From Coprobacillaceae bacterium (GTDB taxonomy: Bacteria > Bacillota_I > Bacilli_A > Erysipelotrichales > Coprobacillaceae), in NCBI GenBank assembly GCA_963675515.1, contig OY776328.1, forward strand, positions 2,340,001 to 2,372,000: a DNA stretch of 32,000 bases, in the 5' to 3' direction. Numbering within the stretch: the first letter of the stretch is position 1; the number at the start of each line of letters is the position of its first letter. Shown here piece by piece: positions 7,382-18,354 of the stretch. The notes under the pieces are model-generated. The model was not told the origin of the DNA and did no database searches. It saw only the letters and a program-made list of their open reading frames with translations. A program made the translations under genes and the position numbers.

Positions 7382-7888
7382 ATGAATAAGAAAGTAATTG
7401 TGAACGACAAGATGCAGCGCAACTATGTCTATTATCTAAGCGAACCGGTTGGCGAAAACTTCCATCCCGATTTCCAGCCGGAACTTACTCCCAGCCAGAT
7501 GCTCGAGCTAGGAGTGTTCGGCGGCAAATACATGAGAGACTGCCAGAAGGAATTCCCGTCCCAATGGTTCGCCAATGCCAAACTGGCAAAGGGAAAAAAA
7601 GACATCAGTCTCAACTTTTTCCAGGTTGATGCCTCGCTTCCACTTCGCCATTGGCAGGAAAAAGGATGGATAAATCACAACGATCCCCGGGGTTGGTTCC
7701 AGTGGTATTGTCGCTATTATATGGGCCGTCGGCTACCAGAAGAAGACCAGCGCCAGATCAGACGATGGCTGGCGATAAAACGTCATGTGGGTGCGATCAG
7801 GAAAAACTGCATCCCGCTGGATCTGGATTGCCGGAAGAAGCAACGCCAGGCGCTGCTCCACTGGGCCTACGACAGCCGCAGAATATGA
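7382..7888 (+). CDS. Conserved hypothetical protein (168 aa)
   Basis: GGAGG lies 6 nt upstream of the ATG at 7382. The motif DPRGWFQWYCRYYMGRRLPEEDQRQIRRW looks like a conserved family that I cannot name. A terminator follows. Confidence 0.75.
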   Translation: MNKKVIVNDKMQRNYVYYLSEPVGENFHPDFQPELTPSQMLELGVFGGKYMRDCQKEFPSQWFANAKLAKGKKDISLNFFQVDASLPLRHWQEKGWINHNDPRGWFQWYCRYYMGRRLPEEDQRQIRRWLAIKRHVGAIRKNCIPLDLDCRKKQRQALLHWAYDSRRI

Positions 7889-7914
7889 AAAAAAAAAGAC
7901 CTTCGGGTCTTTTC
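7889..7914. terminator. Bidirectional rho-independent terminator
   Basis: AAAAAAAAAGACC-TTCG-GGTCTTTT. Confidence 0.75.
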
Positions 7915-8023
7915 ATATATTGGAAATCAACGATCAGGCGTGAGATTTTTGAAAAAGGTATGAAATAGTTGGCAATATAGTAATATAGAAAGTGTATGTG
8001 CCTGACGTTGACTTACAACCATT

Positions 8024-8170
8024 TTAATGGTTGCAGCTGTTGCCGCCTGTTTTTTGGGAACAGCTACAGCAGCTTGTGCAACTGCGGTTGTTCTTTTTGT
8101 CTTTGACCATCTTGCATATGATCCCACAAAGAATCAATGAGATGACGGCCAGTACGATATAATCTGCCAC
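8024..8170 (-). CDS. FeoB-associated Cys-rich membrane peptide (48 aa), absent from the ORF track
   Basis: GTG at 8170 with SD GGGGAGAG overlapping the feoB stop. It reads VADYIVLAVISLILCGIICKMVKDKKNNRSCTSCCSCSQKTGGNSCNH: one TM helix plus a Cys-rich tail, as in the family found downstream of Firmicute feoB. Confidence 0.7.
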   Translation of the reverse strand: MADYIVLAVISLILCGIICKMVKDKKNNRSCTSCCSCSQKTGGNSCNH

Positions 8171-8181
8171 TGTTCTCTCCC

Positions 8182-10176
8182 CTATCCTTTTTGATAGTTA
8201 GATCCCAATGACTCTCTAGGTTTTCTTGCCATCAGGTAGATCACGTATCCCGAAATCGCGCTTACAACAATCAGTCCCGGGATGAATCCTTGACCGATGG
8301 TTCCAGATTCTATAAGAGTTCCCACCTGATAGATGACAAAGGCAACCACATAACCCATAGCCAGCTGGAAGGCAATCGCTCCAATCAGCCATTTCTTGGA
8401 ATCAAGCTCGGCATTCATTGCGCCGATGGCCGCAAAGCATGGCGGGGTGAAAAGATTGAATGCCAGATAGGCCAGGGCTGAAGCGCTTGTCAACCCCATG
8501 ACTTGAGCTACGCTCGAAGCCCCATTTATCAACACAAGATCATCGACATTGATGAAATTTGTGATGGAAAATACAACCGCCAATGTTCCGACGACATTTT
8601 CCTTGGCGATGAATCCTGTAATGGCTGCAGCAGCCAATTGCCAGATCCCGAATCCAAGTGGTATCAGGATGATTGAAAATGGTGTGGCTACGCTAGCCAG
8701 GATGCTTGTAGCTTCCATTCCTTCTTCAATCACCTGGAATTGCCAGTTGAATGTCGACATGATCTGCACCAGGGCGTTGCAAAGCAAGATGATTGTAGCC
8801 GCCTTGACGATGAATGCCTTACCTTGGTTAAGCATTGAAATTGCAGCCCGTTTGACGCTAGGAATCCGATATTCGGGCAATTCCATGATGAAGTAATCGG
8901 TCACCTTTTCGTCTTTGGTGATTTTCCGGACTATCAGGGCGCTGAAAATGATAAGCACAATTCCCAACAAGTACATTGATGAACTCACCCATGATGCATC
9001 TTGGAAGAATACCCCGGCAAACAAGGCGATGACCGGCAGCTTGGCTCCACAAGGCATGAATGGTGTCAGCATCGCCGTTGTCCGGCGTTGCCTTTGGTCC
9101 TGGATTGTCCGGGTAGCCATGATTCCAGGAATCGCGCACCCTGTCCCGATAATCATCGGAATTATCGATTTTCCCGACAATCCGACCCATTTGAAGAACC
9201 GGTCCATGATCACCGCAACGCGGGCCATATAACCACTGTCTTCAAGCAAGGCGAGAAGGAAGAACAAGACCATAATCAAAGGCAAGAAACCGACCACGGC
9301 ACTCACTCCGCCGATGATTCCATCAAGAAGCAATGCCCCGATAACCGGAGATACGTTATCACCCATCAGCCCTGCCACAAAACCGTAGAACTGGTCAATC
9401 CACCCTACCAGGATGTCGGCCAGATAGGTACCGACATAGGTTTGGGAAATCGAGAAAACCAGCCACATAACCAGAGCGAATATCGGCAGCCCCAGCCACT
9501 TGTGAGCCAGAACCCTATCCAGGTTGTCCTGAATGTTTGAGACATTGGTTTTGGTTTGGCGCACTTCAACCTGGGCCACGATATCTTTGACAAAACTGTA
9601 ACGTTGGCCATCGAGTTCTTGGACCTCTTCTTTTGTCAAGCCATCAAGGTCAACCTGATTGAACTGCGGATTTTGGATATTGTTTTGGGATTTTGCACAT
9701 TGGTTGACCAGATCCTCAAGACCGGTATTCCCACTTGCGCTGACTGCGACAACCGGACAGCCAAGAAGGTTTGACAGCAAGTCGATGTCTATCTTCAATC
9801 CTTTTTTAGGTGCAAGATCCATCTTGTTCAACGCCACAACGACTGGAATATTCAGCTCGAGCAATTGGCTTGTAAAAAACAGACTGCGGCTGAGATTGGT
9901 GGCATCGACTATGTTGACGATGACATCCGGCGTAGCGTTCAATACGAACTCCTTCGTGATGTTCTCTTCAGATGTGTACGGAGACATCGAATAGGCACCC
10001 GGCAAATCGACCACGGTTATTTTCGCAATTCCCTTGTTCAATGACTTTTTAAGTGGAGCCTCTTTTTTGGCGATAGTAACGCCGGCCCAGTTACCTACTT
10101 TTTCAACCTTACCGGTAATCGCATTGAATAATGTCGTCTTACCGCTGTTTGGATTTCCTGTTAAAGCTATCTTCAT
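8182..10176 (-). CDS. feoB: Ferrous iron transporter FeoB
   Basis: G-domain MKIALTGNPNSGKTTLFN...VVDLPGAYS...NKMD followed by a polytopic membrane domain. The start is placed at the second Met (GGGGGAAG SD). Confidence 0.95.
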   Translation of the reverse strand: MKIALTGNPNSGKTTLFNAITGKVEKVGNWAGVTIAKKEAPLKKSLNKGIAKITVVDLPGAYSMSPYTSEENITKEFVLNATPDVIVNIVDATNLSRSLFFTSQLLELNIPVVVALNKMDLAPKKGLKIDIDLLSNLLGCPVVAVSASGNTGLEDLVNQCAKSQNNIQNPQFNQVDLDGLTKEEVQELDGQRYSFVKDIVAQVEVRQTKTNVSNIQDNLDRVLAHKWLGLPIFALVMWLVFSISQTYVGTYLADILVGWIDQFYGFVAGLMGDNVSPVIGALLLDGIIGGVSAVVGFLPLIMVLFFLLALLEDSGYMARVAVIMDRFFKWVGLSGKSIIPMIIGTGCAIPGIMATRTIQDQRQRRTTAMLTPFMPCGAKLPVIALFAGVFFQDASWVSSSMYLLGIVLIIFSALIVRKITKDEKVTDYFIMELPEYRIPSVKRAAISMLNQGKAFIVKAATIILLCNALVQIMSTFNWQFQVIEEGMEATSILASVATPFSIILIPLGFGIWQLAAAAITGFIAKENVVGTLAVVFSITNFINVDDLVLINGASSVAQVMGLTSASALAYLAFNLFTPPCFAAIGAMNAELDSKKWLIGAIAFQLAMGYVVAFVIYQVGTLIESGTIGQGFIPGLIVVSAISGYVIYLMARKPRESLGSNYQKG

Positions 10177-10207
10177 ATTGTCTTCCCCCTGAACTCTTTT
10201 TTGCAAA

Positions 10208-10222
10208 TGAAAATCATTCTCA
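10208..10222. promoter_or_regulatory. Fur box candidate in the feoA-feoB spacer
   Basis: TGAAAATCATTCTCA against the 7-1-7 consensus TGATAATNATTATCA gives 12/14. It lies within the longer palindrome AAATGAAAATCATTCTCATTT. Confidence 0.55.
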
Positions 10223-10251
10223 TTTGCTTCGTATAAAACCAGCCGCCAAGA

Positions 10252-10563
10252 TCAATCAACGACTATGCAGCTGGCTAATTGTTGATCGATGCTGTAGCGG
10301 GCATCTTTAATTACTATTACATACTGATTCGCAATTTTCGAAACCACAGTGACCGTCTCGCCGGGATAGCATCCCAGAGTGAAAAGGAAATCTTTGATTT
10401 TCATATCACCTGTCCGGATTTTCCTTATGGTATATTCCTGATTAAGATTGGCGTAGATCAAGGAATTGTCGCATTCGTGATTACGCTCAAATCCTCTTCC
10501 CTGACAATTCTTATGTTTACGTTGTCTTTTAAAAAAGCCGCGGAATTTTACTGTATTGTCCAT
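10252..10563 (-). CDS. feoA: FeoA-family protein
   Basis: The C-terminal segment YTIRKIRTGDMKIKDFLFTLGCYPGETVTVVSK...VIVIKDARYSI is a FeoA/SH3-like domain. AGGAGG lies 7 nt upstream of the ATG at 10563. Confidence 0.85.
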   Translation of the reverse strand: MDNTVKFRGFFKRQRKHKNCQGRGFERNHECDNSLIYANLNQEYTIRKIRTGDMKIKDFLFTLGCYPGETVTVVSKIANQYVIVIKDARYSIDQQLASCIVVD

Positions 10564-10600
10564 AACCAATCCTCCTGGAATATCGATCGCTCATTGAAAT

Positions 10601-10615
10601 TGAGATTCATTCTCA
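10601..10615. promoter_or_regulatory. Fur box candidate overlapping the feoA transcription start
   Basis: TGAGATTCATTCTCA matches the 7-1-7 consensus at 11/14 and lies immediately downstream of the -10 of the feoA promoter. Confidence 0.55.
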
Positions 10616-10620
10616 GGCAT

Positions 10621-10649
10621 ATATTATCAAACCTGATCCGCCCTGTCAA
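10621..10649 (-). promoter_or_regulatory. feoA promoter
   Basis: On the minus strand: TTGACA, a 17-nt spacer, then TAATAT. Confidence 0.6.
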
Positions 10650-10774
10650 CAGTAATCATAAAAAAATTAGACTCTTCTAACATTTCTTAATTCCATTGAC
10701 CTCACCAGCGATTTTCCATTACACCAAGCCCTTAATTGGTAAACCATCATGCCATTGCCAATACCGCATTAGAT

Positions 10775-10803
10775 TTGACAGTTCCGGGCAACTCTAATAT
10801 AAT
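10775..10803 (+). promoter_or_regulatory. fur promoter (consensus sigma-A type)
   Basis: TTGACA (10775-10780), a 17-nt spacer, then TATAAT (10798-10803). This argues for the ATG at 10830 rather than the TTG at 10803 as the start. Confidence 0.7.
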
Positions 10804-10829
10804 TGAGTCATGAAAGCAAGGTAGACACA

Positions 10830-11282
10830 ATGATCACAAATGAAAACATATACAAATCCATCAAAGATAAAGGTTACAAGCTGACCAAGCAGCGACAGAC
10901 TATAATCGAAACCCTGTTAAAGCATAGAAAAGAGCACCTGACCGCCGATGAGCTGTACCATCATGTCAAGGACATCCATCCCGAAATCGGGCTGGCTACC
11001 GTTTATCGCAATGTCAAGATGCTTTGCGATCTGGGTATAATCGAAACCTTGAATCTCAATGACGGCTTTGTCCGGTACGAACTTGCCCCAACCACAAAGA
11101 AACACCGGCACCACCATCTTATCTGCACCAACTGCCACAGGGTGATCGAGGTCGAAGAGGACCTGATGGATTCAATCGAACAACTGTTCGCCAAAAAATA
11201 CAACTTCAAAGTGAGTGATCATGAAACAAAGTTCTATGGCCTCTGTGATCAGTGCCAACAAGGAAACAAAGCTAAAGGATGA
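10830..11282 (+). CDS. fur: Fur-family metalloregulator
   Basis: Winged HTH (..GLATVYRNVKMLCDLGII..), HHHLIC, and two CxxC pairs (CTNC, CDQC). It is divergent from feoAB, which carries Fur boxes. Confidence 0.9.
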   Translation: MITNENIYKSIKDKGYKLTKQRQTIIETLLKHRKEHLTADELYHHVKDIHPEIGLATVYRNVKMLCDLGIIETLNLNDGFVRYELAPTTKKHRHHHLICTNCHRVIEVEEDLMDSIEQLFAKKYNFKVSDHETKFYGLCDQCQQGNKAKG

Positions 11283-11366
11283 CAGATAGGCTCCCTTTTG
11301 CGCAATCCGCTTTAAGGATCAGTTTATCCAAAAAGGACAATTTTCCGAGCTTATCTTAGGTGAATG
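10904..11366 (+). repeat. Direct repeat copy 1 (3' two-thirds of fur plus ~85 nt downstream)
   Basis: Aligns base by base with 15544-15958. The coding part has few substitutions, the tail is more diverged, and copy 2 carries a 48-nt deletion. Confidence 0.85.
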
Positions 11367-11423
11367 GAATTAATATTTTCAAAGTTCTCGTTCTAGAGAT
11401 CTCCCGGCTAATGCAAGTCCGAT

Positions 11424-11452
11424 TTGACAAGCTTTGATATATTTGTTATATT
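11424..11452 (+). promoter_or_regulatory. Strong orphan promoter
   Basis: TTGACA (11424-11429), a 17-nt spacer ending in TGT (extended -10), then TATATT (11447-11452). Confidence 0.65.
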
Positions 11453-11458
11453 CAGTAT

Positions 11459-11716
11459 GGTTTCATTAGAAACTTTTTATGAATTATGGTAAAGTAGCAC
11501 CTTGAGTATTTGGCTTATGAGTTGATACAGGTTAACTATCGGTATTTATAAGTCTGCCGCAAAAAAAGAAATTGGCTGTGAAAAATCAAAATTTTAGAAC
11601 TGGGACTTGGTTAGGATGATTCATCATGACCCATACTACTTAAGTGGTATGATTCGAGCGCAAGCGAAGTTTAAGTACTCTAACTCTATTTGAGTTGGGG
11701 TACTTTTTTATTTTTT
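11459..11716 (+). ncRNA. Candidate ~250-nt non-coding transcript (promoter-to-terminator unit without a credible ORF)
   Basis: It is bounded by the promoter above and the terminator at 11675-11716. Internal hairpins are GUUUC-AUUA-GAAAC (11461-11474) and CAUACUAC-UUAA-GUGGUAUG (11632-11651). The longest ORF is 25 codons and lacks a properly spaced SD. Confidence 0.35.
11675..11716 (+). terminator. Rho-independent terminator
   Basis: A 12-bp stem GTACTCTAACTC / GAGTTGGGGTAC (two G-U pairs), loop TATTT, followed by TTTTTTATTTTTT. Confidence 0.7.
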
Positions 11717-11808
11717 CAGTACCCAACACTAATCTATACGAGGAGCTAACTATCTTTAATTCAAGTTATTTTTGAAAATTAGCTAAATTTCTTTTAGATC
11801 ATTGAAAA

Positions 11809-13224
11809 GTGAATTTGTGTACACTGAAAACAACCACCGTCGTGGCTTAAATTTTATTTTACATTTGTATAATTATATTAATGCCGTTTCGTCAAATGGG
11901 ATGTTTTCAGATAACAATTTATAAATTACTCTTATTAGTTTGCGAACCGAATGGCCTTGGGCGCATCGATGGGATTTACCTTGGGAACGTTTTAGGTTAT
12001 AATAACTATTGAAAGTGGGATTATTGGAACATACTGTAAGAATGCATTGATAAAGTGTCTTTCTCAAATAACGCGAACCGCGTTTTGACAAAGCTGTCTG
12101 CGGAGAGTTGTATTCTCCGGACTGATAGGTCCCGGGATCAACCCCGGCAAAACCGATAATTTTTGTAGCTGAGCTGAAACTATCGATGTCTCCAATTTCA
12201 CTTAATATTGACATTCCTGAGTATGTACCGATGCCCGGGATAGTAAAGATAGGAGAGTTTAGTGTGATGGCTAATTCTTCTATTTTTTTATCCACAATTG
12301 ACAATTGGGATTTGATCAATTCTATTGCTTCGATAAGCATACCAATTTCCATGGTAATTACTTCATTGTTTTCACCGATTGACTGTTTTGCTGCTTCACG
12401 AAGTGATACAGCGTCGACATCCGCATGGTTACCTCTACCTTTTGGTTTGAGGACATTCTTGAGATGGGTAAGATTGGCATTGGCTAGATTATATGAGTTC
12501 CCAAACTCCTTTAAAATAGCCATGTAAGCCCGTGAGTACTTTGTTTTGAACCAAATGTTAATCTCAGGAATTACGATATCGATACACTTTTGAAGTCTGT
12601 TTTTATTTTGATTGAGATCTTCGGTAAGTGTTGCATGATACCGGGTCAATTCCTTGGCTTGTTTCAAAGCTAATTTGCGCTTTGTAACCCGGGTGTAGTC
12701 TTTGTCAAAAAGCACTGAGCAAATCAGGAAAGTGTCTTTCTTGTCATTTTTGGTTTTCCTGATTTTTCCACGACGTTTGGCGTCAGTGGTCAACGGATTT
12801 ATCATTCCGACTTCATAATCGTTTGAAATTAGAAAATTGACGATATTGTCGCCGTAATGGCCAGTGGCCTCTAGACCGACAATATGTCGCGAAGACTTGA
12901 ATTGGCTTGTATTGTTAAGAAACAAGTCGAATCCAGCGTGATCGTTGGTGAAGAAAAACGGTTTAACCAACACTTCACCATTAGAGTCAACAACGCAGGC
13001 ACAGTGTTTGAATTTACCTACGTCAATACCTATGTAATACATGATAACACGTCCTTTCGTATTCAGTGATGTGCGACTATCCACATACAAGGTATCAAAG
13101 ATCCTGGTGCAAAATACAAGTTCAAAGACTTATCTAACTAATTACAATTCAGATACAAAGATGTGGCAATGTCCTCCTCGAGGTAGTCAAGCTACAGGTA
13201 ATAAAAATCAAAGTACACATTCAC
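11809..13224 (-). mobile_element. IS110-family insertion sequence (boundaries approximate)
   Basis: It contains a DEDD-type transposase gene. Imperfect terminal inverted repeats are GTGAATTTGTGTAC (11809-11822) and the reverse complement of 13213-13224, GTGAATGTGTAC. The region is visibly A+T-rich, with 182 nt of non-coding 5' end and 64 nt of 3' end. Confidence 0.7.
11873..13042 (-). CDS. IS110-family transposase/recombinase
   Basis: MYYIGIDVGK...GLEATGHY...KTKNDKKDT (DEDD N-domain) and IPGIGTYSGMSILSEIGDIDSF...SKRGSRYLRKTLY (C-domain). GAAAGGA SD lies upstream of the Met at 13042. Confidence 0.92.
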   Translation of the reverse strand: MYYIGIDVGKFKHCACVVDSNGEVLVKPFFFTNDHAGFDLFLNNTSQFKSSRHIVGLEATGHYGDNIVNFLISNDYEVGMINPLTTDAKRRGKIRKTKNDKKDTFLICSVLFDKDYTRVTKRKLALKQAKELTRYHATLTEDLNQNKNRLQKCIDIVIPEINIWFKTKYSRAYMAILKEFGNSYNLANANLTHLKNVLKPKGRGNHADVDAVSLREAAKQSIGENNEVITMEIGMLIEAIELIKSQLSIVDKKIEELAITLNSPIFTIPGIGTYSGMSILSEIGDIDSFSSATKIIGFAGVDPGTYQSGEYNSPQTALSKRGSRYLRKTLYQCILTVCSNNPTFNSYYNLKRSQGKSHRCAQGHSVRKLIRVIYKLLSENIPFDETALI

Positions 13225-13271
13225 AATTTAATTTTAAAACAAAAAACTAAGAAAGGAAAATGTATATTAAA

Positions 13272-13300
13272 TTGACTGATAGATAAGTCATTTATAATAT
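13272..13300 (+). promoter_or_regulatory. kamA promoter candidate
   Basis: TTGACT (13272-13277), a 17-nt spacer, then TAATAT (or TATAAT with a 15-nt spacer). Confidence 0.55.
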
Positions 13301-13312
13301 ACCAGGATATGA

Positions 13313-14566
13313 ATGAATATCAAGAAAAACAATGAAAAATGGCATGACTACAAATGGCAACTGCAAAACCGGATCACCTCGATCGAGCAGGTCGAGAAGA
13401 TTCTCGAAATCCGTTTCGAACCCGGATTGCGCAGCCAACTCGAGAAAACAATAGCTACATTCCCTCTGTCGATAACCCCGTATTACCTATCCCTGGTGGA
13501 CGCGGGCGACTTCCATAACGATCCGGTATTCCAACAGGCATTCCCCAGTCCCAAGGAGCTCGATGTCTCAAGCTGTGACATCCTGGATCCGCTAAACGAG
13601 GACGGTGACAGCCCGGTGACTGGAATCACCCACCGCTACCCCGACCGGGTCCTGTTCCATGTTTCCAACGTATGCGCCATGTACTGCCGCCACTGTACCC
13701 GCAAACGCAAGGTTGGCGACACCGATTTCAACCCGACCATCGAACATTACCAGGCAGGAATCGAATACATAGCCTGCCATCCTGAAATCCGCGATGTACT
13801 TCTTTCCGGGGGCGATCCCTTCCTGCTCGAGGATGAGACTATAAGATTGTTGCTGGAAAAAATCAGTGAAATCGAGCACGTTGAAGTGATCCGCATCGGA
13901 ACCCGGACACCGGTAGTGCTGCCTTTCAGGATCACTGACAATCTTGTGGCCATATTGAAAAAACACAAAAACCTGTGGATCAACACCCACTTCAACCACC
14001 CCAAGGAGATATCATCGGAGGCGATTGCCGCCCTTGACAAGCTTGCAGAAGCGGGCATCCCACTAGGGAACCAAAGCGTCCTGCTCGCAAATGTCAATGA
14101 CTGCTCGAAAATCATGAAAAAGCTTGTTCAGAAGCTGACCGCCCACCGGGTCCGCCCTTACTACATGTACCAATGCGACCTCTCTTACGGCCTGGAACAT
14201 TTCCGGACCAGCGTAGGTAAAGGGATCGAAATCATGGAAAGCTTGCGCGGCCATACCAGCGGTTATGCGGTTCCGACATATGTCATCGATGCCCCCGGCG
14301 GCGGAGGGAAAATCCCGATCATGCCAAACTATCTGATGTCATGGTCCACCAACAAGGTTGTATTGCGAAACTACGAAGGCATGATAACGACCTACCAGGA
14401 ACCTGGCAACTACGAACCGAACTATTGTGACCTCAACTGCAAGGATTGCAGCCTGCAATTCAAATATGATCAAAAGGACAACTACAAGCCGATCGGACTC
14501 GAGAAACTCCTGTGCGACACCGATGACCTGATCACCCTGACCCCGATGGAGCTGTCAGGTGAATAG
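13313..14566 (+). CDS. kamA: Lysine 2,3-aminomutase (radical SAM, KamA/AblA family)
   Basis: [31 protein letters not shown] (CxxxCxxC) and [10 protein letters not shown], a length of 417 aa, and a C-terminal Cys cluster. Confidence 0.9.
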
Positions 14567-15413
14567 GGGCGATATCATCGAGGAATTGAACGGTTTTGCC
14601 ATCCAGTTTGGAAAACTCTCCGACCGGGTCTACCTTCTCGATTACCTCGAAAAATACGACAGGTTGCTCCTTGAAAACATCAATGTCCTGGCCAGATACC
14701 ACAATTACTCCAAGATCATCATCAAGGCAGGCAAAGATGCCGCCGCCAGGCTGGAAAAGGACGGATTCGCCTGTGAGGGCAAAGTCGAAGGATACCACAG
14801 AGGCCAACAGGATGCCTTTTTCATGGTGAAGTATCTTAACCCCAGACGGTATGAACATGACAAGACAGCCTTGAAGCAAGTGCTCGAAAAATCCGGCCGA
14901 CTGCAGGAAGATAATCCAGGAAGTCTGCCAAGCCAGTACCAGATCCGCCTGCTGAAATTGCAGGATGTTCCGGAAATGGCCGCTCTTTTCAAAAGAGTAT
15001 TCACTACCTATCCGTTTCCGATTTTCGAGGAAGAATATCTTCGCGAAACGATGGGGGACAACTGCATCTACCTGGGCGTCTTTTTCCAGGAAAAGCTAGT
15101 CGGCATATCTAATTGCGAAACCACCAAGGAACATCTGGCCTGCGAAATGACGGATTTCGCAATCGATGAGTGCCATCGGGGCCAGAAGCTGGCGCGCCAT
15201 CTTCTTTTGGCGATGGAAAACCGGCTCCGGGAAATGAATTTCAAGACCGTCTACACAATTGCCCGGTCCGCTTCCCTGCCAATGAACGCTACCTTCAAAA
15301 AATCCGGTTACATATATGGAGGAACTCTGATAAACAACACCCAGATCTCGGGGTCAATCGAGTCGATGAACATCTATTACAAGCCCCTGTCAATGCAAGC
15401 AAATCAGCATTAG
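14559..15413 (+). CDS. ablB: Beta-lysine N6-acetyltransferase-like GNAT (AblB/YodP family)
   Basis: The GTG start overlaps the kamA stop by 8 nt. GNAT core [18 protein letters not shown] and the C-terminal [19 protein letters not shown] are typical of AblB-type proteins encoded next to kamA. Confidence 0.75.
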
Positions 15414-15538
15414 AATTTGATACCCTATTTTATCTTGATCATAATCGGTCGTGGAAAGCAAGTTAAAGCCAATGATCCCAAATGCGCGATATACAAAAAC
15501 CTCAAACCCAAAGCCTAAAAGCTGAAATGGCTGCGTAA

Positions 15539-15874
15539 AAAATTATCGAAACCCTGTTAAAGCATAGAAAAGAGCACCTGAAAGCCGATGAGCTGTACCA
15601 TCATGTCAAGATGCTTTGCGACCTGGGTATAATCGAAATCTTGAATCCAAATGACGGCTTTGTCCGGTACGAACTTGCCCCAACCACAAAGAAACACCGG
15701 CACCACCATCTTATCTGCACCAAGTACCATAAGGTGATCGAGGTCGAAGAGGACCTGATGGATCCAATCGAACAACTGTTCGCCAAAAAACACAACTTCA
15801 AAGTGAGTGATCATGAAACAAAGTTCTATGGTCTCTGTGATCAGTGCCAACAAGGAAACAAAGCTAAAGGATGA
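15539..15874 (+). pseudogene. Decayed fur fragment (lacks the N-terminal ~24 codons and a start, lacks the recognition helix, first CxxC destroyed)
   Basis: Aligns to fur codons ~25-150. There is a 48-nt in-frame deletion between two ATGTCAAG repeats, which removes DIHPEIGLATVYRNVK. CTNCHR has become CTKYHK. I count about 8 nonsynonymous against 3 synonymous differences. A stop lies at 15536-15538 upstream in frame. Confidence 0.85.
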
Positions 15875-15958
15875 CAGATCGGCTCCCTTTTGGGCAATCC
15901 GCCTCTAGAACCGATTTGTCCAAAAAGCACAATTATTTCCGCTGATTTTAGGCGAATG
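15544..15958 (+). repeat. Direct repeat copy 2 (partner of 10904-11366)
   Basis: See copy 1. Homology ends about 55 nt before the ABC-transporter promoter. Confidence 0.85.
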
Positions 15959-16012
15959 ACACAAACATCCTCAAATATTTGATGCAAGCGCTATCATTGT
16001 CGTTCCGGCATA

Positions 16013-16041
16013 TTGACACCGAGGCCATAATGTTGTATTGT
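16013..16041 (+). promoter_or_regulatory. Promoter candidate for the binding-protein gene
   Basis: TTGACA, a 17-nt spacer, then TATTGT. Confidence 0.45.
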
Positions 16042-16064
16042 ATACAATATAGGAGGATTATTTT

Positions 16065-16826
16065 ATGTTTAAAAAATTGGTTAAAACAGTTTTGGCCGGT
16101 TCATTGGCAGTTGGCTTGGCTGCTTGTGGTTCAAGCACTTCGGATAATGGCGATACTGTCTACAAGATCGGTTGCGATGCTAAGTACGCCCCTTTTTCTA
16201 TGGAAGTCGATGGTGAATATGTGGGTATCGATGTTGAAATTCTTGATGCGGTCGCAGAAGCTGAAGGTTTCGAATACACTTTGACTCCGATGGACTTTTC
16301 AGGTATCATCCCTGGCTTGTCAACCGGACAGCTTGACGGGGCAATCGCCGGGATTTCGGTTACTGAAGAGCGTAAAGAAACCGTTGATTTCTCGGACGGT
16401 TACTATGATTCGGCTCTGGCGCTGGTAGTCAAAAACGACAATAGTGCAATCATGTCACTGGAAGACCTTGAAGGAACTTCTGCTGCGGTTAAAAAAGGAA
16501 CCCGTGGAGCGACATTCGCTGAGGAGTTCGGGGAAACTTATGGATTCTCTATCACTTACTATGATGATTCTCCATCAATGTTCCTGGCGGTGCAAAACGG
16601 AAACAATGACTTCCTGTTGGAAGACTATCCGGTAATCTCTTACCAGATCAATGAAGGTATCCAAACCGGACTGAAAGTCGCTGTTGAAACAGTCGGTGAT
16701 GGCGTGCCATATGCGTTCGCGGTTAAAAAAGGTGAAAACCAAGATCTATTGAATATGTTTAACGACGGGCTGGCAACTATCAAGGAAAACGGCACATACG
16801 ACGAAATTCTTGCCAAATATATTTAA
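16065..16826 (+). CDS. Amino-acid ABC transporter substrate-binding lipoprotein (polar amino acid family)
   Basis: Lipobox LAACGSS, SBP_bac_3-like DFSGIIPGLSTGQLDGAIAGISVTEERKETVDFSDGYY, and AGGAGG SD. Confidence 0.9.
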   Translation: MFKKLVKTVLAGSLAVGLAACGSSTSDNGDTVYKIGCDAKYAPFSMEVDGEYVGIDVEILDAVAEAEGFEYTLTPMDFSGIIPGLSTGQLDGAIAGISVTEERKETVDFSDGYYDSALALVVKNDNSAIMSLEDLEGTSAAVKKGTRGATFAEEFGETYGFSITYYDDSPSMFLAVQNGNNDFLLEDYPVISYQINEGIQTGLKVAVETVGDGVPYAFAVKKGENQDLLNMFNDGLATIKENGTYDEILAKYI

Positions 16827-16835
16827 AGATCGACG

Positions 16836-16867
16836 AACTCACATTGATTTGTGAGTTTTGTTTTTTA
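16836..16867 (+). terminator. Rho-independent terminator after the binding-protein gene
   Basis: AACTCACA-TTGATT-TGTGAGTT followed by TTGTTTTTT. Confidence 0.65.
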
Positions 16868-16892
16868 AGTTTAACTATGGGCTGGCATGTTC

Positions 16893-16921
16893 TTGACTTT
16901 TGCCCATATTCAAGATATTGT
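16893..16921 (+). promoter_or_regulatory. Internal promoter candidate for the permease and ATPase genes
   Basis: TTGACT, a 17-nt spacer, then TATTGT. Confidence 0.5.
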
Positions 16922-16976
16922 GAAAAATAAAGAGGCAGAAACTTGATGCTGTTTTCTTATTTAGGAGGAGTTTTAT

Positions 16977-17642
16977 ATGAGTGAATTCATTTCATTGTTT
17001 GTCAAGTACATGCCCGAACTGTTAAGCGGGCTGGTAATGACCATCTCGATTGCCGTGCTTGCCTTGTTCTTCGGGGTAATCATTGGTATGGTTTTCGGAC
17101 TGATGTCGATTTCGAAAAACAGATTTGTTTCAGGGATTGCCACTTTCTATGTCGGACTGATTCGCGGTATACCGGTATTCGTGCTTGCGATGTACCTGTA
17201 TTTCGGTATTCCCGGACTTCTTGGCATAACCATTCCGGCTTTCAATGCCGCAGTCATCATCCTGGCGATCAACTCGTCGGCATTCCTGTGCGAGATTTTC
17301 AGGGGAGGAATCCAGGCGGTCGACTTCGGTCAGATGGAAGCGGCCCGCTCTTTGGGGATTCCATATCGCCAGACGATGACCCATGTCATCCTGCCTCAGG
17401 CAGTCAAGATCATGGTGCCATCGATCATGAACCAGTTCATTTCAACATTGAAGGATACTTCAATCTTGTCAATCATCACCGTCCGCGAACTGATGATGAA
17501 CTCGCAGATCATCGTAGCCCGCACATTCGAACCGTTCTACATCTACACTTATGCCGTGATTTTCTATCTGATCATGGTTACCGCCTTGACTTTGTTGGCC
17601 CGATTAATTGAAAGGAAAATGAAATATGATAATAGAGGTTAA
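16977..17642 (+). CDS. Amino-acid ABC transporter permease (His/Glu/Gln/Arg/opine family)
   Basis: EAA-type loop [25 protein letters not shown], five hydrophobic segments, and GGAGG SD. Confidence 0.9.
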
Positions 17643-18354
17643 GAATCTTAAAAAAGCATATGGCGACAATGTCGTATTGAAAGACGTTTCCTTCAATGTC
17701 GCCGAAGGTGAAGTTGTCTGCATCATCGGTCCTTCGGGATCGGGAAAATCAACCCTGCTTCGCTGTCTTAACCGGCTTGAAGAAGCCCAGGCCGGAGAGA
17801 TCAACATCTTTGGCGATGACATCTTGAAGACCCGCAACCTTGACAAATTCCGCGAGAAAATCGGGATGGTCTTCCAGCATTTCAACCTTTTCCCCAACTA
17901 CACGGTGCTAGGCAACATGACCCTGGCTCCCCTGCTTACCAAAAAGATGTCAAAAAGCGAAGCGGTCGAAAAGGCGAAAGCCTTGCTTGACAAGGTAGGC
18001 CTGCTCGACAAGTCTAATGCCTACCCTTCAACCCTGTCGGGTGGACAAAAACAGCGGGTTGCCATCGCCCGGGCCTTGGAAATGAACCCTCAGATCATGC
18101 TGTTCGACGAACCTACCAGCGCCCTCGATCCGGAAATGGTCGGTGATGTCCTGGCGGCAATGAAGGAGCTGGCTGACGAAGGAATGACAATGGTCATCGT
18201 GACCCATGAGATGGCTTTCGCCAAGGAAGTGGCCGACCGGGTCATCTTCATGGACGGAGGATACATCGTCGAAGAAGGCGCACCTGAGCAGATTTTCAAC
18301 AGTCCGGAATCGGACCGCTGCAAATTGTTCCTTTCAAGGGTGTTGAACCACTAA
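17626..18354 (+). CDS. Amino-acid ABC transporter ATP-binding protein (GlnQ-like)
   Basis: Walker [10 protein letters not shown], signature LSGGQKQR, and Walker [13 protein letters not shown]. It overlaps the permease gene by 17 nt. Confidence 0.95.

Follow-up and report, generated by a model that had tools for sequence, protein, structure and literature searches.

A fur gene and its pseudogene on either side of kamA-ablB in a Coprobacillaceae bacterium: evidence for insertion of a paralogue, allelic exchange and a conversion-type patch

Why does a bacterial genome carry fur twice, in direct orientation, on either side of a kamA-ablB pair? In this work, we have analysed a 32,000-nucleotide stretch of a Coprobacillaceae bacterium (contig OY776328.1, positions 2,340,001 to 2,372,000), hereafter the window, to which all coordinates refer and which sits in a complete 2.88-Mb genome (G000). 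Here the second fur lies 4.6 kb downstream of an intact one (copy 2 and copy 1, respectively). Between them, as the original prediction on this DNA had described, are an A+T-rich RNA unit, an insertion sequence (IS) of the IS110 family, kamA and ablB, and the promoter of an ABC transporter operon follows copy 2. That prediction took the layout for a ~4.2-kb cargo left by the Campbell-type integration of a circular DNA carrying a piece of fur. Our results show that the part extra in G000 is not this cargo but a 698-bp unit bearing copy 1. The locus was most probably shaped by insertion of copy 1, exchange of the kamA-ablB block, a conversion-type patch within fur, decay of copy 2 and, finally, entry of the IS110 element.

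Relatives were collected through a genome search, a search of a large protein collection with AblB and contig look-ups, and five of them, all of the same Erysipelotrichaceae genus, were compared with G000: G001, an Erysipelotrichaceae metagenome-assembled genome; L091 (GCA_028690185.1, contig JAQVBS010000044) and L093, which are essentially G001 strains; L092, a more distant lineage than G001; and G002, the most distant member of the genus. As an outgroup, L092 stands apart from G000 and G001: its helicase is 61% and 59% identical to theirs, against 79% between the two, and a 267-aa protein shows 68% and 71% against 76%. In G001, L091, L093 and L092 the order is leader-kamA-ablB-fur-substrate-binding protein (SBP)-permease, with one intact fur after ablB and immediately 5′ of the ABC transporter, and feoB-feoA lies directly upstream of the leader wherever the contig of a relative reaches that far. 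Gene order thus shows the ancestral arrangement of the clade: feoB-feoA, divergent from leader-kamA-ablB-fur-ABC transporter, with a single fur. In G002, fur is divergent from feoAB, leader-kamA-ablB lies 40 kb off and the ABC operon is elsewhere. An ancestral adjacency of fur and transporter had been predicted, and it is borne out in four relatives, but kamA-ablB already stands upstream there; the empty site that related genomes were expected to reveal (fur followed by the ABC transporter with no kamA nearby) was found in none of the five.

When positions 10686-11383 and the IS are removed, the spacer between feoA and kamA becomes collinear with that of G001, L091 and L092 across ...TCTAACATTT|..., which marks copy 1 as a 698-bp insertion derived in this genome. 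The unit consists of 79 nt (10686-10764), the fur promoter, fur itself and a 3′ tail with the terminator region. Its promoter, TTGACA-17-TATAAT at 10775-10803, has the full score of 12/12 (promoter scores are out of 12). The start chosen by the caller of open reading frames (ORFs), a TTG at 10803 (ORF 10803-11282), overlaps the gene's own -10 box (10798-10803); the conserved ATG at 10830, with AAGG ahead of it, is the likely start and would give a protein of 150 aa. This protein matches positions 2-121 of the 121 of PF01475 (E 7.8e-36), carries HRHHH, CTNC and CDQC (the HHH motif and both CxxC motifs), and is 73-76% identical in amino acids to the Fur proteins of the relatives; copy 1 presumably encodes a functional Fur.

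Copy 2 is the positional orthologue of the single fur of the relatives. Because its homology to copy 1 reaches the promoter, the start codon and the tail at ~15975, it is a whole unit and not a 3′ fragment. It is clearly a degraded fur unit at the ancestral position, now a pseudogene: the frame that opens with the ATG at 15472 meets a stop after 17 codons, a slippage deletion has removed 16 codons (48 nt), CTNC has become CTKY with loss of a zinc cysteine, and the promoter (TTGATA-17-CATAAT, 15417-15445) has degraded to 10/12. An 87-codon remnant ORF (15611-15874) was considered as a dimerisation-only Fur, which is unlikely: its changes are mostly non-synonymous, the zinc cysteine is lost, no Shine-Dalgarno sequence lies upstream, the promoter is degraded and the ratio of non-synonymous to synonymous differences (pN/pS) is about 0.4, from a tiny sample.

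The relation between the two copies is uneven. A repeat search paired 11011-11310 with 15603-15902 (300 nt, 96%) and 10902-10970 with 15542-15610 (69 nt, 96%), with a 48-nt register shift between both pairs, and gave a weaker 5′ match of 10812-10884 with 15454-15525 at 76-84%. In a MAFFT alignment the 48 nt are deleted in copy 2, the deletion being bounded by two ATGTCAAG words, and homology covers the whole unit from promoter to terminator (10765-11383 versus 15407-15975). The direct repetition of fur is thus far beyond chance, and the predicted coordinates, 10904-11366 and 15544-15958, were essentially right; homology does not begin at codon ~25, as had been thought, since weaker similarity runs back to the start codon and the promoter and forward to ~11383/15975. 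The predicted divergence by substitutions and a 48-nt deletion is there, but it is unequally spread: the core (10902-11316 versus 15542-15908) is 95-96% identical, while the flanks (10765-10901 and 11317-11383, 204 homologous nt) are only 62% identical between the copies.

At informative sites copy 2 tracks G001 up to ~10900, copy 1 over 10902-11316 and then G001 again, and the switch points are sharp, within about 10 nt. Site patterns rooted with G002 group copy 2 with G001 in the 5′ part (5:0:0) and copy 1 with copy 2 in the tract (25:1:2). A five-taxon maximum-likelihood tree of the tract joins the two copies with a bootstrap of 100, the branches being 0.002 for copy 1 and 0.054 for copy 2. 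The centre of both copies is of the copy-1 type. Outside it, the copy-2 flanks are 81-82% identical to G001/L091 and only 62% to copy 1, and the copy-2 tail is G001-like (about 80-88%), while the copy-1 tail is an outlier and not donor-like; a single crossover within fur is excluded for this reason. The two repeats are not the halves of one crossover either, as the Campbell reading demanded: copy 2 switches twice, and copy 1 is not of G001 type on either side. The tract has 19 substitutions: copy 2 is derived at 11, mostly non-synonymous, and copy 1 at 4, the other 4 being ambiguous. We expressed synonymous differences as pS, for G000 versus G001 unless stated. Inside the tract, pS between the copies is 0.08; between the tract and G001 it is 0.70, as for a native allele. 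The branch lengths and this last value point to the copy-1 type as the source of the tract. Sharply bounded high identity within a divergent paralogous pair, and discordance between the tract tree and the flank tree, are what ectopic gene conversion leaves, and both are found here, although a retained native patch predicts the same pattern. As to age, the event had been called not recent, which is right for the copies themselves and wrong for the near-identical core, which is comparatively recent.

The block between the copies has a history of its own, as the cargo reading implied. pS is 0.34 +/- 0.03 for kamA and 0.35 +/- 0.04 for ablB, against 0.51-0.69 in about 20 flanking syntenic genes, from which we conclude that leader-kamA-ablB was exchanged between lineages. 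At the nucleotide level, the leader is 94-98% and kamA about 90% identical to G001, and identity falls to 75-79% at 15390-15440, the ablB/fur boundary; in amino acids, kamA and ablB are 96% and 81% identical to G001. kamA is not intrinsically slow, because it diverges by 22% from L092, as its neighbours do, and yet by 9% from G001, whereas SBP and permease diverge by 16% from G001 and 18-19% from L092. These values point to an ancestor of the block and of the outer parts of copy 2, shared with the G001/L091 lineage, that would be younger than that of the surrounding genome. Exchange at this locus is seen a second time: L091 is identical to G001 in feoB, feoA and permease (100%) and nearly so in kamA (99%), but a ~2-kb patch diverges (ablB 85%, fur 89%, SBP 95% in nucleotides). 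The patch is an independent recombination import, and shows the locus to be recombinogenic. At the end of ablB (15393-15413), translation runs six codons on into the fur promoter region, AblB having 284 aa in G000 and L091 against 278; the stop codon of G001 and L092 is mutated.

We propose that the history started from the single-fur order that G001 displays. The 698-bp unit, with complete fur, promoter and tail, was inserted between feoA and the kamA leader, where the collinear spacers place it; its most likely source is the fur of the lineage itself, since it differs from the fur of the sister species to the same degree as the genome at large (pS 0.59 to G001, at baseline). Homologous recombination with a G001/L091-like sister lineage may have replaced leader-kamA-ablB and, in the downstream fur, the outer parts. 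The shared core, a probable non-reciprocal recombination patch, could have come about by either of two routes: copy 1 may have overwritten the centre of copy 2 by ectopic gene conversion, or that centre may be a native stretch which a discontinuous import left unreplaced. One study reports that discontinuous donor segments are common in natural transformation of B. subtilis (PMC13344027). With two genes present the downstream fur was no longer needed, and fell into the decay visible in copy 2. Last, the IS110 element entered the kamA ribosome-binding site (RBS), which it splits. We infer the order of insertion and block exchange, the source of the unit and the route to the shared core.

Several other histories were weighed against this one. 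A tandem duplication of leader-kamA-ablB-fur, after which the first kamA-ablB was deleted, was rejected, as copy 1 is not sister to the copy-2 flanks and the boundary of the duplication would also have to be the exact start of the deletion. A Campbell crossover inside the 96% core, with conversion accompanying it, founders on the two tails described above, that of copy 1 not donor-like and that of copy 2 G001-like. We regard as very improbable an ancient duplication, in which the ancestor had fur-leader-kamA-ablB-fur, the upstream copy was lost independently in the G001/L091/L093 and the L092 lineages, and the downstream copy was pseudogenised in G000. It would account for flanks only 62% identical and for the 5:0:0 patterns that place copy 1 outside copy 2 and G001 in the 5′ part; however, an identical stretch of 698 bp would have to be deleted precisely twice, independently and without leaving a remnant, copy 1 is no older relative to G001 fur than the species baseline, and the younger recombinant block explains why copy 2 is close to G001. 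Prior loss of the block, with a G001-like leader-kamA-ablB-fur then integrating downstream of a resident fur, by a Campbell circle or by homology-facilitated illegitimate recombination (HFIR) anchored on fur, on the tail or on the ABC operon, would make copy 1 the resident and copy 2 the donor. We think this quite unlikely. The left end of the deletion and the start of the donor would have to coincide within about 3 nt, none of the five relatives has an empty site, a crossover inside fur is excluded by the copy-1 tail and the donor-like sides of copy 2, and the near-identical core still requires a separate conversion. Such a reacquisition does fit the baseline divergence of copy 1, the younger, G001-like copy-2 flanks and kamA-ablB, and the feoA-fur adjacency shared with G002. 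It also has precedents: old copies were left beside new ones in the displacement of Vibrio type VI secretion system modules (PMC5361080), and HFIR is described as an established route for DNA with one homologous end (PMC3240628). The earlier suggestion that fur served as a homology anchor for acquiring kamA-ablB would likewise work only if the block had first been lost and two junctions then fell on one nucleotide.

Is the 698-bp unit itself foreign? It could be a xenologue from an unsampled related lineage, brought in by illegitimate recombination, possibly together with feoB-feoA, and the foreign fur would then have displaced the native one functionally; we hold this to be unlikely. Copy 1 forms a long branch near no sampled fur (its flanks are 68-70% identical to G001/L091 and 55% to L092), its 79-nt left end is without an identifiable homologue in the ablB ends and the G002 spacer tested, the adjoining feoB-feoA (about 7900-10685) is closer to L092 than to G001, and fur-feoAB has changed place in the genus as one module. 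Against this, the pS of 0.59 to G001 falls within the baseline, as a native allele predicts and a foreign one would match only by coincidence. The spacer is collinear with the relatives up to 10685, and the unit was therefore not imported as a continuous block with a differently organised feoA-fur spacer.

Some observations weigh against the history that we prefer, which combines insertion, block exchange, patch and decay. No sampled fur is closer to copy 1 than that of G001, which leaves room for a foreign origin, and copy 1 recreates the feoA-fur adjacency of the distant G002, which our model must take as a coincidence. The 698-bp unit has no mobile-element ends beside it. Its 79-nt left end was compared with five ablB ends, where the best result, in one comparison only, was 16/500 shuffles (p about 0.03, uncorrected), and with the native feoA-fur spacer of G002, where 41/500 shuffles (p about 0.08) give no support. 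Three of the five relatives are near-identical to each other, and the outgroup status of L092 is based on few genes, and there are genes that are discordant. Codon-level constraint could partly explain the low pS of kamA-ablB, although the comparison with L092 argues otherwise. A likeness of 'IFHYTKPL' in the 79-nt stretch to the AblB C-terminus 'NIYYKPL' had prompted the comparison with the ablB ends, and an ablB 3′ remnant at this place is unsupported.

Table 1. Coordinates of the features discussed, in window positions
Feature	Position	Strand	Remarks
Copy-1 unit, 698-bp insertion only in G000	10686-11383	+	Collinearity restored without the unit
fur copy 1, intact	10830-11282	+	150 aa from ATG 10830; PF01475
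Copy-1 side of the shared tract	10902-11316, 415 nt	+	Switch points; 25:1:2; bootstrap 100
Copy-2 side of the shared tract	15542-15908, 367 nt	+	48-nt deletion junction inside ATGTCAAG at 15603-15610; CxxC to KY near 15724-15726
fur copy 2, pseudogene, ablB-ABC position	15407-15975	+	Positional orthologue of the single fur in G001, L091, L093, L092
kamA, lysine 2,3-aminomutase, intact	13313-14566	+	PF04055 and PF12544 (radical SAM, LAM_C)
ablB, beta-lysine N-acetyltransferase, intact	14559-15413	+	GNAT Pfam; homologues so named by their sources
kamA leader RNA	11424-11716	+	Promoter 11424-11452, ~215 nt structured RNA, terminator 11673-11705 and U-run
IS110-family insertion sequence	11749-13302 (+/-3 nt)	-	Transposase 11873-13090; PF01548 and PF02371
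feoB; feoA	8182-10206; 10252-10569	-	Pfam FeoB_N/Gate/FeoB_C, FeoA; divergent from copy 1; orthologues in G001, L091, L092
ABC transporter operon	16013-18354	+	Promoter 16013-16041, SBP 16065-16826, permease 16977-17642, ATPase 17626-18354

What, then, is the RNA unit between copy 1 and the IS? It had been called an orphan, but it is the conserved leader of kamA, separated from its gene by the IS110 element. In G001, L091, L092 and G002 it lies directly upstream of the kamA RBS. Its promoter scores 11/12 and has a TG, and its intrinsic terminator has a stem of 14 bp. In a consensus fold of four sequences, compensatory changes occur in 10 of the 77 pairs, and one loop is swapped from GCAA to UUCG (GNRA to UUCG). 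Promoter, covarying structure, terminator and a position just upstream of the gene are the features of attenuation leaders, and the leader is a candidate for a new riboswitch or attenuator of compatible-solute synthesis. Rfam, searched at gathering and at permissive thresholds, gave nothing credible. A covariance model of the leader matched genus members only, always upstream of kamA, and had no matches at kamA-ablB loci of other phyla or of other Erysipelotrichaceae genera. The ~250-nt leader is kept in every genus member, even where kamA identity is only 73%, and leader loci elsewhere are L032:7050-7318(-), L092:7470-7737 and L034:4132-4399(-).

The ablA/ablB pathway makes the compatible solute N-epsilon-acetyl-beta-lysine. 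AblB is present in 3/3 genus genomes and in 0/78 other genomes of the family, from 32 genera, which makes kamA-ablB a genus-level acquisition and not a strain-level cargo. The best AblB matches outside the genus are 40-49% identical and come from many phyla, and, apart from two short contigs that were uninformative (L084, L085), a metagenome scan with AblB returned distant relatives only (about 40%). A tentative idea, which we rate as doubtful, is that the cassette is self-contained: a new, genus-restricted class of riboswitch or attenuator would control synthesis of N-epsilon-acetyl-beta-lysine as an osmolyte, the cassette would be passed from lineage to lineage by homologous recombination with the fur unit as one arm, and the IS110 element would have uncoupled the control here.

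The IS110 element lies between the leader terminator and the kamA RBS and start codon, splitting AAGGAGGATATG, and is absent at the same site in G001, L091, L092 and G002; its insertion into the kamA RBS is later than the other events. Its assignment to the family rests on a DEDD transposase with both Pfam domains of Table 1, on multiple copies and on the empty orthologous site. Six related copies occur elsewhere in the genome at 85% identity (L004-L009). In the kamA copy and L004-L008 the left flank ends in (C/A)(G/A)AGGAG, the right flank begins with AGGA(A/T) and a start codon follows 3-8 nt on; L009 has the left flank common to the others and a different right end, and is probably truncated. 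Because this junction context is common to the copies, we conclude that the element is directed at Shine-Dalgarno sites and always enters them in one orientation, its transposase lying antisense to the gene. The conserved right end carries an outward sigma-70-like site (TTGACT-17-TAATAT, 13272-13300). IS900-type members of the IS110 family insert between RBS and start codon in one orientation. The targeting seen here is probably the same behaviour, known in mycobacteria: six of the seven copies, the one at kamA and L004-L008, sit in an AGGAG|..|AGGA..ATG context in one orientation, although the host phylum differs and the right end here carries the outward site. Shine-Dalgarno-targeting IS110 elements are not addressed in PMC7823733, and the host-expression-dependent 'hed' ORF, without an RBS or start of its own (PMC8141618), is only indirectly relevant.

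The wider region was also put together from parts. In G002 the three modules, fur-feoAB, leader-kamA-ablB and the ABC operon, are at three separate places (the regions compared were C1 ~109-113.5 kb, 482-485 kb, 442-444 kb and 1573-1575 kb); fur-feoAB sits between genes that neighbour each other in G000 and G001, the kamA block adjoins a multi-copy transposase-like gene, and the genes that flank the whole 8182-18354 block are only ~1.15 kb apart. By its gene order, this block is a composite assembled in the G000/G001/L092 clade. Its feoB-feoA segment, 7900-10685, is another recombinant segment, consistently, if slightly, closer to L092 than to G001 (FeoB 85% versus 76%, FeoA 78% versus 65% in amino acids), with the switch in affinity near 7800-7900. 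The ABC operon (Pfam SBP_bac_3) is syntenic in four relatives and has a baseline pS of 0.51-0.58.

How does the locus compare with known systems? Textbook cases of ectopic gene conversion are the duplicate tuf genes of Salmonella, rRNA operons and pilE/pilS. Here, as there, a bounded patch of one copy stands in the other, patch and flanks are discordant, the pattern appears non-reciprocal and the direct copies lie a few kb apart. In contrast, the recipient is a decaying pseudogene in which conversion has no evident function, and instead of twins kept alike by concerted evolution there are two divergent alleles, with flanks 62% identical; a native patch from mosaic import accounts for the fur pattern just as well. 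With mosaic transformation and HFIR (PMC13344027, PMC3240628), the locus shares a few-kb donor-like block in a resident background and the second, independent patch in L091. Direct repeats of a host gene around a few-kb segment do recall a Campbell integration; however, four relatives show the segment to be ancestral at this position, the two repeats differ from reciprocal hybrids, an empty site is lacking in the five relatives compared, and neither an integrase nor plasmid functions are present, the sole mobile element being the later and unrelated IS110. The locus is a new instance of known processes, insertional duplication with ectopic conversion or mosaic recombination.

Its value is mainly corrective, since a layout that looks like cargo between target duplications is read here as paralogue insertion, allelic recombination and a conversion-type patch. 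It is also a clean, datable case of a gene and its own pseudogene that share a near-identical core between flanks of different alleles, and it shows how such a core misleads dating, with a pS of 0.08 beside flanks 62% identical. In practice, work on fur should address copy 1, and annotation should mark copy 2 as a pseudogene; kamA-ablB is best seen as a trait of the genus which the IS has severed here from its native control element. The leader RNA is the element of the region with the most potential novelty and the likeliest to repay experiments.

Can the repeats still recombine? They are usable for it, as predicted: the longest perfect run between the copies is 74 nt, within the 367-nt core. 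A crossover in the core would delete 4.64 kb (leader, IS, kamA and ablB) and leave a chimeric fur. Since the non-synonymous lesions of copy 2 extend to 15791 (Y to H), a wild-type Fur would come only from crossovers in about the last 117 nt, and loss of the segment, though possible, would usually be costly through a damaged chimeric fur. The predicted outcome resembles the chimeric genes that deletions between paralogues left in E. coli evolution experiments (PMC13626634), except that the fur hybrid is a prediction only and most crossover points would carry pseudogene lesions. Elsewhere in the window, a group II intron domain (RF02004, 109 bits) lies at 589-767 on the minus strand.

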